Both the position numbers and the translations under genes were made by a program. A stretch of DNA of 64,000 bases from UHGV virus genome UHGV-0018629; one strand, written 5' to 3'. Source of the DNA: a virus. How positions within the stretch are numbered: position 1 is the stretch's first letter; every line of letters starts with the position of its first letter. Positions 8,335 to 12,457 of this stretch are shown piece by piece. A model generated the notes under the pieces. That model saw only the letters and a list, made by a program, of their open reading frames with translations, did not search any database and was not told the origin of the DNA.

Positions 8335-11300
8335 ATGGCTACTTTAAAACAAATACAATTTAAAAGAAGCAAAACGGCAGGTCAACGTCCAGCTGCTTCA
8401 GTATTAGCCGAAGGTGAATTGGCTATAAACTTAAAAGACCGTGTACTTTTTACTAAAGATGACCAAGGAAATATTATTGATTTAGGTTTTGCTAAAGGCG
8501 GTAGTATTGACGGGAATGTTATTCATAAAGGCAATTATAACCAAACTGGCGATTATACTTTAAACGGTACATTCACCCAGACTGGTAATTTTAATTTAAC
8601 CGGTATTGCTCGAGTAACTCGTGATATTATTGCTGCTGGGCAGATTATGACTGAAGGCGGAGAACTTATTACAAAAAGTTCAGGTACATCACATGTTCGT
8701 TTTTTCGATGGCAATAGCCGCGAACGCGGAATCATTTATGCCCCGGCTAATGATGGTTTAACTACACAAGTACTTAATATCAGAGTTCAAGATTACAAAG
8801 CCGGTTCGGAAAATACTTTTTCTTTTAGCGGTAATGGTCTTTTCACATCGCCGGAAGTTTCTGCATGGAAATCTATGTCAACTCCCCAGATTTTGACTAA
8901 CAAAGTCATTACTAATAATAAATCTACGGGTGATTATGACATTTATTCGATGGCAGACAATGTTCCACTGTCTGAAAGCACTACTGCTATTAATCATCTA
9001 CGTGTCATGCGCAATGCAGTCGGTTCTGGTATTTTCCATGAAGTTAAAGATAATGATGGAATAACTTGGTATAGTGGAGATGGATTAGATGCTTATCTTT
9101 GGTCATTTACCTGGAGCGGCGGAATTAAATCAAGCCACTCAATTTCTATCGGTTTAACACCCGGTAATAAAGATTATTCAATATTAGGACCATCTAGCAT
9201 TGCTTTAGGAGATAATGATACTGGATTTAAATGGCATCAAGACGGATATTATTTCAGCGTTAATAATGGCACAAAAACGTTTTTATTTAGCCCTAGCGAA
9301 ACAACTAGCCTAAGAAAATTTGTAGCTGGATATTCTACTAATGGAACCGATTTAACTACTCCTCCGACTGAAAACTATGCTCTTGCTACTGTCGTGACAT
9401 ATCACGACAATAACGCGTTTGGAGATGGTCAGACTCTTTTGGGGTATTATCAAGGCGGTAATTATCATCACTATTTCCGCGGTAAAGGTACTACAAACAT
9501 TAATACTCACGGAGGGTTATTAGTTACTCCTGGTAATATTGATGTTATTGGCGGTTCTGTTAATATTGATGGTAGAAATAATTCTTCTACACTGATGTTT
9601 AGAGGTAACACAACTGGTAGTAGTTCAGTTGATAATATGACAATTTCTGTGTGGGGTAATACATTTACTAATCCTAGTGAAGGTAATCGTAAAAACGTCA
9701 TGGAAATTTCTGATGCAACTAGTTGGATGAGCTATATTCAAAGACTTACTACTGGTGAAATAGAAATGAACGTTAATGGTTCATTTGAATCATCTGGTGT
9801 TACTGCTGGAAATAGGGGAGTTCACACAACAGGCGAAATTTCATCTGGAGCAGTGAATGCACTTCGCATTTGGAACGCAGATTATGGAGCCATTTTTAGA
9901 CGTTCAGAAGGTAGTCTTCATATTATTCCAACTGCTTATGGTGAAGGCAAAAATGGCGATATCGGTCCACTTCGCCCATTTAGTATGGCTTTAGATACCG
10001 GTAAAGTTACTATTCCAGATTTACAATCAAGTTACAATACGTTCGCTGCTAACGGTTATATTAAATTTGTTGGTCATGGAGCGGGTGCCGGCGGTTATGA
10101 CATTCAATATGCTCAAGCGGCTCCTATTTTCCAGGAAATTGATGATGATGCTGTAAGCAAATATTATCCTATTGTTAAACAGAAGTTTTTAAACGGTAAA
10201 GCCGTTTGGTCTTTAGGTACTGAAATTAATTCTGGTACATTTGTTTTACATCATTTGAAAGAAGATGGTTCACAAGGCCATACATCAAGATTTAATGCTG
10301 ATGGTACAGTTAATTTCCCCGATAACGTTCAAGTCGGCGGCGGTGAAGCTACTATTGCTCGTAATGGTAATATTTTCTCAGATATTTGGAAATCGTTTAC
10401 TTCTGCGGGAGAAACCACAAATATTCGCGATGCAATAGCTACTCGTGTTTCTAAAGAAGGCGACACGATGACTGGTAAATTGACTTTATCGGCAGGCAAT
10501 GATGCTCTCGTTTTAACTGCAGGGGAAGGTGCTTCATCACATATCCGTAGTGATGTAGGTGGTACAGGTAACTGGTATATAGGCAAAGGAGGCGGCGATA
10601 ATGGTCTAGGTTTTTACAGTTACATTACACAAGGCGGTGTATACATAACAAATAACGGCGAAATATCGCTTTCTCCTCAAGGTCAAGGAACATTTAATTT
10701 TAATAGAGACCGCCTTCATATAAACGGTACACAATGGGTTGCGCATAAATCTGGCGCCTGGGGTGACCAATGGGGTTTAGAAGCTCCTATATTTGTAGAT
10801 TTTGGATCCGTCAGCAATGACTGCTATTATCCTATTATTAAAGGAAAATCTGGTATTACTAACGAAGGATATTTTTCCGGCGTAGATTTTGGTATGCGAC
10901 GCACTACTAATAACTGGGCGCAAGGTATTATTCGTGTAGGTAACCAGGAAAATGGTTCTGACCCGCAAGCTATATATGAATTCCACTATAATGGAACTCT
11001 GTTTGTTCCTAACATGGTTCAAACTGGAGCAAGATTATCAGCTGGCGGTGGTGACCCGGTGTGGACTGGGCCATGTCTTGTTATTGGTGATAATGATACT
11101 GGTTTAGTCCATGGCGGTGATGGCCGAATCAATATGGTTGCCAATGGTGTTCATATTGCTTCATGGTCATCTGCTTATCATCTCCATGAAGGTCTTTGGG
11201 ATACTACTGGTGCTTTGTGGACTGAGCAAGGAAGAGCTATTATTTCTTTTGGTCATTTAATCCAACAGAGTGATGCATATTCAACGTTTGTCCGTGATGT

Positions 11301-11646
11301 TTATGTCCGTTCTGATATTCGCGTTAAAAAAGACCTCGTTAAATTTGAAAATGCTTCTCAGAAGCTTTCTAAAATTAACGGTTACACTTATATGCAGAAG
11401 CGAGGCCTGGATGAGGAAGGTAATCAGAAATGGGAACCTAACGCCGGTTTAATTGCTCAAGAAGTTCAAGCTATTTTACCTGAATTAGTTGAAGGCGATC
11501 AGGATGGTGAAGCTTTACTTCGTTTGAACTATAACGGTGTAATTGGTTTAAATACAGCTGCTATCAATGAGCATACCGCAGAAATTGCAGAACTTAAATC
11601 CGAAATTGAAGAGCTTAAAAAATTAGTTAAATCATTGTTAAAATAA
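8335..11646 (+). CDS. 37: long tail fibre distal subunit gp37 with C-terminal intramolecular-chaperone-like domain
   Basis: 1103-aa ORF; C-terminal ~110 aa (..[22 protein letters not shown]..coiled-coil [14 protein letters not shown]) resembles autocleaving S74-type chaperone domains. Confidence 0.9.
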
Positions 11647-11651
11647 TAAGA

Positions 11652-11665
11652 GGGGCTTCGGCCCC
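11652..11665 (+). promoter_or_regulatory. GGGGC-TTCG-GCCCC tetraloop hairpin between genes 37 and 38
   Basis: Perfect 5-bp GC stem with UUCG loop directly before the gene 38 SD GGAGG. Confidence 0.35.
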
Positions 11666-11677
11666 TTGGAGGTTTAT

Positions 11678-12457
11678 ATGGCAGTAGCAGGACCGTGGAT
11701 AGGAACTTCTGCATTGGCACAGACTGGAGACCATTGGATGGCAGGAGCAGCCGCAAGATTAAGAATGGGTGCTCCATTTTGGATGAGTAATATGATAGGT
11801 CGATCTGTTGAAATAATTCACACGCTTGGAGCAGACCATAACTTCAACGGTCAATGGTTCCGAGATAGATGTTTTGAGGCAGGTAGTGCACCTATAGTGT
11901 TTAATATTACTGGAGATTTAGTATCATATTCTAGAGATGTTCCTTTATTTTTCATGTACGGAGATACACCTAATGAATACGTTCAACTGAACATACACGG
12001 CGTAACGATGTATGGTCGTGGTGGGAATGGTTGGGCCGCTGGTGCAATTGGAGCATCTGATGGCGGTGTATGTATCCAGAATGATATAGGTGGACGTCTG
12101 CGAATTAATAATGGCGGAGCTATTGCCGGTGGCGGCGGTGGCGGCGGTGGTTATTCACAAGCCAACAACTGGGCGGGAAAATATGTTTGTGGTGGCGGCG
12201 GCGGTCGTCCATTCGGCTTAGGCGGAAATAATGGTGCTCGATGGCCTGGTGGTAATGCTAGTTTGACGTCTCCGGGTGCTGGCGGTAATACTGGTACAGG
12301 GTATTATGCAGGTGGCGGTGGTGAAGTTGGTCAGCCAGGACAATATGCTAATCCAGGTGCTGGTTATTCAACACCTCCGACAAGTCCTGGCGCTGCTGTA
12401 GCAGGATCAGCTCCAACATGGCAGAATGTTGGAGCAATATATGGTTCAAGAGTATAA
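11678..12457 (+). CDS. 38: T2-type receptor-binding adhesin gp38 with glycine-rich motifs
   Basis: ORF-track start 11666 is TTG; ATG at 11678 follows SD GGAGG; conserved N-terminal domain then [42 protein letters not shown] motifs separating variable segments. Confidence 0.85.

Follow-up and report, generated by a model that had tools for sequence, protein, structure and literature searches.

A T2-type gp37-gp38 tail-fibre module of the PP01/AR1 subtype, with a predicted O157-type OmpC receptor, in virus genome UHGV-0018629

The distal half-fibre and the tip adhesin of the long tail fibre encoded by virus genome UHGV-0018629 belong, with high probability, to the T2-type Tequatrovirus module and, within it, to the PP01/AR1 subtype. 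The DNA analyzed here (the window) is a stretch of 64,000 nucleotides (nt), in which the locus under study, positions 8335-12457, extends exactly from the start of g37 to the stop of g38; the genes and other features mapped in the fibre region lie on the + strand. An earlier reading of the window, made without database searches (the sequence-only reading), had proposed that two open reading frames (ORFs) at this place form a T2-type receptor-recognition module, and both ORFs are indeed present, g37 at 8335-11646 and g38 ending at 12457. The attribution to the T2-type family stands and is refined here to the PP01/AR1 subtype; the gp38 proteins of this phage and of T2 are only 49% identical. Every defining feature of the T2-type gp37/gp38 module that is amenable to in silico testing was found in the locus, none was missing, and no data contradicting the overall assignment were encountered.

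The gp38 protein is, to judge from its sequence, a T2-type tip adhesin of the PP01/AR1, OmpC-binding subtype. It covers the whole of both pertinent Pfam profiles, GP38 (PF05268; E=4.3e-72, 242.9 bits for a cut-off of 25, profile positions 1-218 of 218) and Gp38_N (PF21721; E=5.6e-20, 71.5 bits for a cut-off of 25, positions 1-40 of 40), and matches phrog_2056, annotated as "tail fiber protein; host specificity", at 3e-108; NCBIfam provided no model for either gp37 or gp38. The complete protein aligns to S16 gp38 (PDB 6F45_D, E=8.6e-52), and its residues 35-259 match PDB 9V85 with an E-value of 2.9e-143 and only two substitutions. Similarity of this order is not attributable to chance. Compared with the copy in the PP01 genome, 254 of 259 residues are identical, and none of the five differences (A22G, A26Q, A32I, I46V and S236N) falls inside the receptor loops, A to E, that have been defined in PP01. 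A different reading would make gp38 an assembly chaperone of the T4 type that stays outside the virion and leaves receptor recognition to the gp37 tip itself. Gene 38 of T4 does lie at the equivalent place, and the label "distal long tail fiber assembly catalyst" is still attached to homologues in several database records. However, a blastp comparison of T4 gp38 (183 amino acids) with the window protein gave no match at E<=10, and the Pfam scan of gp38 returned no chaperone family but the adhesin family, on which grounds the chaperone reading was rejected at the sequence level. In addition, homologues of the protein have been crystallized bound to the gp37 tip (6F45), and the gp37 of the window does not carry the C-terminal receptor-binding domain of T4 gp37 but a Peptidase_S74 chaperone in its place. 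A chaperone role for gp38 thus appears extremely improbable, in agreement with the sequence-only reading, which had favored an adhesin; there is neither a full-length alignment of gp38 with its T4 namesake nor a gp37 devoid of a chaperone-type C-terminal domain.

The adhesin begins with the gp37-attachment domain (residues 1-40, 11678..11797), which coincides with positions 1-40 of Gp38_N and contains three tryptophans, W7, W21 and W35. These are invariant in an alignment of 13 gp38 sequences (this phage, PP01, AR1, T2, S16, PhAPEC2, ime09, RB51, RB14, slur11, JK38, G3F9 and Cronobacter phage LPCS28), the members of which range from 44% to 98% identity to the window protein, and the conservation of this domain had been correctly anticipated. 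The alignment includes two of the adhesins against which the sequence-only reading had proposed to map the variable segments, those of T2 and S16, and the mapping is given below; the gp38 proteins of K3, Ox2 and T6 are represented by those of RB14 and RB51 (annotated as "similar to Ox2, T6, M1"), which stand in for them. In the S16 complex, the three tryptophans have been described as prongs that enter the gp37 tip (PMC6851490). Beyond the attachment domain, the fold of gp38 can be taken as established through its 99% sequence identity to PDB 9V85, a 2.1 Å structure of the sfGFP-fused receptor-binding domain of PP01 gp38, residues 41-259 (PMC12892980).

Of residues 113-259, 33% are glycine, and three glycine blocks, which the sequence-only reading had already pointed out, are located at residues 151-160, 171-186 and 200-215. 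The notion that conserved motifs separate variable segments is borne out by the alignment, in which mean column entropies are 0.25, 0.22 and 0.33 bits for the glycine motifs at residues 113-118, 151-158 and 172-183, respectively, as against 1.6-2.3 bits for the intervening loops. The published boundaries of PP01 loops A to E fall on the same residues in the protein of the window, and all five loops are identical in sequence. Loop A (residues 119-124, WAAGAI; 12032..12049; 1.60 bits) corresponds to W119-I124 of PP01; loop B comprises residues 161-170 (Q161-V170; 12158..12187; 2.12 bits), with Y159 just before it; loop C is NNGARW (residues 184-189; 12227..12244; 2.31 bits); loop D is NTGTGY (residues 204-209; 12287..12304; 1.64 bits) and includes G208 and Y209; and loop E, the main specificity loop, is NPGAGYS (residues 225-231; 12350..12370; 1.70 bits) and includes A228 and Y230. 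The functionally mapped residues Y159, Q161, K168, Y169, G208, Y209, A228 and Y230 are all as in PP01, and A123, Y159, Q161, N163 and T207, the residues that changed in the experimental evolution of PP01 (PMC6027323), are found here in their wild-type state.

The contribution of these residues to infection by PP01 has been documented in some detail. Infection through OmpC(O157) requires residues 158-170 of its gp38 and is impaired by the substitutions Y159A, Q161L, K168N and Y169G; loop E inserts in the cleft between loops 5 and 7 of OmpC, and A228D, Y230P or the deletion of either A228 or Y230 abolish infection (PMC12892980). In the same work, cross-linking connected G208 with loop 5 of OmpC, and infectivity was lost when Y209 was mutated. 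The receptor of PP01 is OmpC(O157), and not OmpC(K12) (PMC12892980). Because all five loops and all the mapped residues match those of PP01 gp38, OmpC(O157) is predicted as the receptor of the phage studied here, and we hold it probable, with fairly high confidence, that its long tail fibre recognizes OmpC. The sequence-only reading had treated the receptor as open, and it is the near-identity to PP01 gp38 that permits the prediction of O157-type OmpC.

Several points qualify this prediction. S236N is located just five residues past loop E, and three of the gp38 substitutions (A22G, A26Q and A32I) lie in the attachment domain. Moreover, at positions 4844-5623 of each compared locus, AR1 and ECp13 show changes at sites mapped in PP01, G208R in loop D and A228S in loop E, respectively, at which the window retains the PP01 residues, and these relatives, which share its loops except for such single changes, have been reported on various Escherichia coli or Shigella hosts; host range is therefore not readable from gp38 alone. 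Access to lipopolysaccharide (LPS) and O-antigen, gp12 and intracellular defences also affect it. These points bring up an alternative in which the architecture is unchanged and the primary receptor is not OmpC but OmpA, OmpF, Tsx, FadL or LPS alone. The proximity of S236N to loop E and the possible contact of loop B with LPS would fit such a change of receptor, and Henning's work on Ox2 reportedly showed that specificity may change through one substitution in a gp38 loop. Nevertheless, S236 is carried by both the window and AR1 proteins, closely related gp38 sequences share their receptor, and the five loops and every mapped residue coincide with those of PP01, for which genetic, cross-linking and mutagenesis experiments have demonstrated the use of OmpC. 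On balance, a different receptor seems quite unlikely, and O157-type OmpC remains the preferred prediction.

The gp37 protein, for its part, matches phrog_1699 over its full length (E=0), has the same length as the gp37 proteins of AR1 and ECp13, with which it shares 92-100% amino acid identity in most blocks of 50 residues, and corresponds to the gene annotated as g37 in AR1 and PP01. Its distal β-helical tip (residues 914-992, 11074..11310), delimited by alignment to 6F45_A, ends in the strand DVYVR, which is conserved with NVYIR in T2 and DLNVS in S16, and the gp37 tip has been identified as the docking surface for gp38 (PMC6851490, PMC7917993). The tip is followed by a Peptidase_S74 intramolecular chaperone (residues 993-1103, 11311..11643), with PF13884 matching residues 993-1052 at E=2.4e-12 (47.4 bits for a cut-off of 22). 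The S16 gp37 construct 6F45_A aligns to residues 914-1103 as a whole (E=5.1e-43), and identity to S16 gp37 is 52-58% over residues 1001-1100. The presence of a chaperone-type C-terminal domain, homologous to the S16 domain reported to be autocleaving, is thus corroborated. The sequence-only reading had described it, more specifically, as a coiled-coil domain of roughly 110 residues with an SDIRVKKD-type motif. Both the size and the motif hold, since SDIRVKKD begins at residue 993 and 110 residues follow S993, but a coiled coil fits only the heptad-like C-terminal tail, the remainder of the ~111-residue domain being the S74 chaperone module; helix is predicted for the final ~45 residues. A single-sequence AlphaFold2 model of residues 900-1103 reached a mean pLDDT (predicted local distance difference test) of 40.5, with confidence restricted to the terminal helix, and we infer the fold of the chaperone domain from its family match only.

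At the start of this domain, the segment S993-D-I-R-V-K998 aligns with SDRRIK in S16, SDIRLK in T2, ADLRAK in 7DC3 and SDERLK in 8JOV, suggesting that S993 and K998 form a putative Ser-Lys dyad. The Ser-x4-Lys spacing is that of the endosialidase dyad. When searched against PDB with phmmer, the isolated domain recovered S16 at 1e-34 and, weakly, 7DC3 (the autoprocessing domain of MYRF, 0.012) and the 8JOV tail fibre (0.044), while the endosialidase chaperone was not recovered in this search. Many PHROG tail-fibre families match gp37 solely through this C-terminal module, which sits at their own C-termini, in keeping with a portable folding module. The last 113 residues of S16 gp37 are reportedly autocleaved at DLNVS^SDRRIKK, exposing the docking surface for gp38 (PMC7917993). 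The alignment of this site with DVYVR^SDIRVKK leads to a predicted autocleavage, by homology, at R992^S993, with the release of 111 residues. Conceivably, the S74-like domain could instead stay on the finished fibre, where it would persist as an inactive relic or serve as a structural coiled coil, with gp38 binding elsewhere; the cleavage is, after all, deduced here from homology, and the helical prediction for the last ~45 residues would suit a structural role. Yet the Ser-x4-Lys pair (S993, K998) is intact and the strand that precedes it conserved, its counterpart in S16 is reportedly removed by autocleavage, which exposes the face on which gp38 docks, and the same module terminates many unrelated tail-fibre families. 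T2 gp37, too, reportedly loses about 120 C-terminal residues, according to Drexler et al. in 1986. Retention of the domain is accordingly regarded as very unlikely, and autocleavage at R992^S993 is the reading we adopt.

These elements can be assembled into a working model of the fibre tip. Late transcription of g36, g37 and g38 would start from a promoter at 7639, and gp37 (1103 residues) would trimerize with the aid of its own C-terminal Peptidase_S74 chaperone and then cleave itself at R992^S993 through S993 and K998, each chain losing 111 residues, as expected from homology to S16 and from the processing ascribed to T2 gp37. Cleavage would uncover a hydrophobic trimeric tip with the DVYVR strand at its end, on which, if the S16 crystal structure is a valid guide, a single gp38 monomer would dock via its N-terminal helical bundle and insert W7, W21 and W35 into three pockets related by symmetry. 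The rest of gp38 is a β-helix that carries a polyglycine-II sandwich made of the conserved glycine-rich motifs, with loops A to E protruding at its distal end. The fibre is then predicted to bind O157-type OmpC reversibly, with loop E lodged in the cleft between loops 5 and 7, an interaction that would require the GVIN insertion in OmpC loop 7, and with loop B (K168, Y169) possibly touching LPS sugars; K-12 OmpC, by the same token, is predicted not to act as a receptor.

The locus bears, in addition, the sequence signature of a recombination mosaic. Elsewhere in the window, a 20-kb stretch taken as a control shares 97.1% identity with phage ECp13, and the best nt identity for the g37-g38 block is 93.8%, also to ECp13, followed by 92.6% to AR1. 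At the protein level, gp37 is 92-100% identical to that of ECp13 throughout, with the exception of residues 551-600 (78%), and the tip and chaperone are 96-100% identical; identity to AR1 is reduced at residues 101-200 (72-84%) and 801-900 (74-88%), and identity to PP01 at residues 151-350 (68-78%) and 451-500 (52%). Mosaic DNA patches within g37 are located at 8720-8869, with ~80% identity to ECp13, AR1 and PP01, and at 9920-10069, with 81% identity to ECp13; the best database match for the wider stretch 8650-8900 is to the UFV05/06/09 phages, at 91.3%. Within g38, the DNA of the attachment module is 88-89% identical to ECp13, AR1 and PP01 at 11720-11869, whereas positions 11678-11880 reach 97-98% nt identity to phages Maryam, T4_ev151 and G2133. 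In view of these differing best matches, the two parts of g38, its attachment module and its receptor-binding domain, have different nearest relatives. Modular exchange has already been described for the T2-type gp37/gp38 family (PMC3157838). It might be postulated that the combination of a PP01-type receptor-binding domain (with S236), an attachment module of another Tequatrovirus lineage and an ECp13-type gp37 tip has altered gp37-gp38 compatibility or shifted the range of OmpC alleles recognized. We consider such an effect unlikely; if real, this recombinant would be the natural counterpart of the module swap by which PP01 gp38 had to be engineered to function on T2 gp37.

The arrangement of the surrounding genes is that of a Tequatrovirus. 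The ORF map and Pfam searches reveal the fibre gene order g34-g35-g36-g37-g38-t, with g34 at 2614-6483, g35 at 6492-7607, g36 (PF03903 gp36) at 7670-8326, g37, encoding the long tail fibre distal subunit as a 1103-residue precursor, at 8335-11646 including its stop codon, g38, encoding the monomeric tip adhesin of 259 residues, at 11678-12457 including its stop, and the holin gene t (PF11031 holin T) at 12488-13144. The same order is found in PP01, AR1, T2, S16 and T4, and the placement of g38 directly 3' of g37 and 5' of the holin gene is common to PP01, AR1, T2 and S16. The window is a segment of a Tequatrovirus genome, and hence of a well-sampled group; even so, a protein look-up found the exact gp37 and gp38 sequences on record only in Logan/ENA assemblies (three contigs). 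The start of g38 was revised. The mechanical ORF call placed it at TTG 11666 (263 residues), and this candidate was rejected in favor of ATG 11678 (259 residues) because the latter is preceded by the Shine-Dalgarno sequence GGAGG (11668..11672, 5 nt 5' of the ATG), because the first position of the Gp38_N profile aligns with its residue 1, and because the PP01, AR1, ECp13 and S16 proteins share the starting MAV.GPW. A peak in GC content (0.456 versus ~0.35 in the surroundings) at 11501-12500, where GC skew is strongly positive, overlaps g38 and can be attributed to its many GGN glycine codons, with no indication of foreign origin. Upstream of the tip, gp37 also contains a domain similar to the C-terminal trimerization domain of gp34 (residues 449-550, 9679..9984; PF21446, 2e-07), and residues 418-561 (9586-10017) match the T4 gp34 structures 4UXE and 5NXF at ~1e-12; it looks like a structural module repeated between both half-fibres.

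With regard to expression, an exact-match scan located the T4-type late promoter consensus TATAAATA at 7639..7646, 24 nt 5' of g36, and at 2572, before g34, as the two copies on the + strand; no copy was found on that strand between g36 and t, the one at 7639 being the sole instance from g35 to t. A promoter function is ascribed to this motif by analogy with T4 late promoters. Over the 64 kb, the motif occurs four times on both strands together, below the ~10 copies expected from shuffled sequences, and both of its + strand copies lie just 5' of fibre genes. The copy at 7639 is likely to be the start of a late transcript spanning g36, g37 and g38, and the lack of further copies between g36 and t suggests that these three genes are probably co-transcribed. 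Downstream, g37 terminates in a double stop, TAA TAA (11644-11649), followed by an intercistronic hairpin (GAGGGGC-UUCG-GCCCCUU, 11650..11667) that separates it from the ribosome-binding site of g38. Its fold energy is -14.1 kcal/mol, which is not significant against shuffled sequences (z -1.4), and its UUCG tetraloop is of the extra-stable type. Hairpins with UUCG are known in T4 mRNAs, and a role of this one in mRNA stability may be envisaged by analogy. Searches of the whole window with Rfam, at gathering thresholds, and with tRNA scans gave no match.

Published work already covers this type of system, how it is built and how it acts, and even the particular surface that contacts the receptor. 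The locus described here, which neither opens nor settles any outstanding question, adds one natural allele and a mosaic arrangement to a family of which the structure, the mechanism and the determinants of specificity have been worked out in PP01, S16, T2 and Ox2. Its value is of a more practical nature, inasmuch as the sequence by itself predicts O157-type OmpC as the long-tail-fibre receptor. Such a prediction can guide the selection or engineering of phages for use on hosts resembling enterohaemorrhagic E. coli or on Shigella, and helps to anticipate resistance through mutations in ompC.

Comparison with known systems places the module closest to those of PP01, AR1 and ECp13. Besides its loops and mapped residues, PP01 has in common with the window a gp38 of equal length, an identical succession of genes and the chaperone motif of g37. 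It differs in the length of gp37 (1109 residues versus 1103) and in the two gp37 regions noted above, in which identity drops to 52-78%, and the DNA of its gp38 N-terminal module is 92.6% identical, compared with 97-98% for other Tequatroviruses. Among complete genomes, AR1 and ECp13 come nearest over the locus in its entirety, being collinear along g37-g38, with equal protein lengths and 92.6-93.8% nt identity. Nonetheless, each of their gp38 proteins differs from that of the window at 13 positions, G208R and A228S among them, and local mosaic patches fall to ~80% nt identity.

At a larger distance, S16 (genus Gelderlandvirus; PDB 6F45) presents the same architecture, with a β-helical gp37 tip and a cleavable chaperone, cleavage being a prediction in the case of the window, and a gp38 that likewise combines a three-tryptophan attachment domain, a β-helix, a polyglycine-II sandwich and five distal loops. 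Its gp38 is 46% identical, the loop sequences differ, with loops B and E shorter, its gp37 is much shorter (749 residues), and its receptor is the OmpC of Salmonella. T2 shows the same module organization and conserved glycine motifs, together with SDIRLK at the gp37 processing site, but all the loops of its gp38 differ and its gp37 reaches 1341 residues. The receptors of T2 are OmpF and FadL, and PP01 gp38 is able to complement T2 gp37 only when the N-terminal 113 residues are swapped. T4 retains equivalent positions for g37 and g38 and a conserved gp37 N-terminus (90% identity over residues 1-50); however, its gp38 is an unrelated chaperone, and its gp37, which has no S74 domain, binds the receptor itself. 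Outside the T-even phages, the Peptidase_S74 domains of the endosialidase K1F type and of MYRF share with gp37 the Pfam match, the Ser-x4-Lys motif with which the domain opens and a C-terminal location on a trimeric fibre, even though sequence similarity to the solved examples (7DC3 and 8JOV, with the values given above) is very weak. For the gp38 homologues of PP01, T2 and S16, the literature shows a location at the fibre tip of the virion and a role in adsorption.

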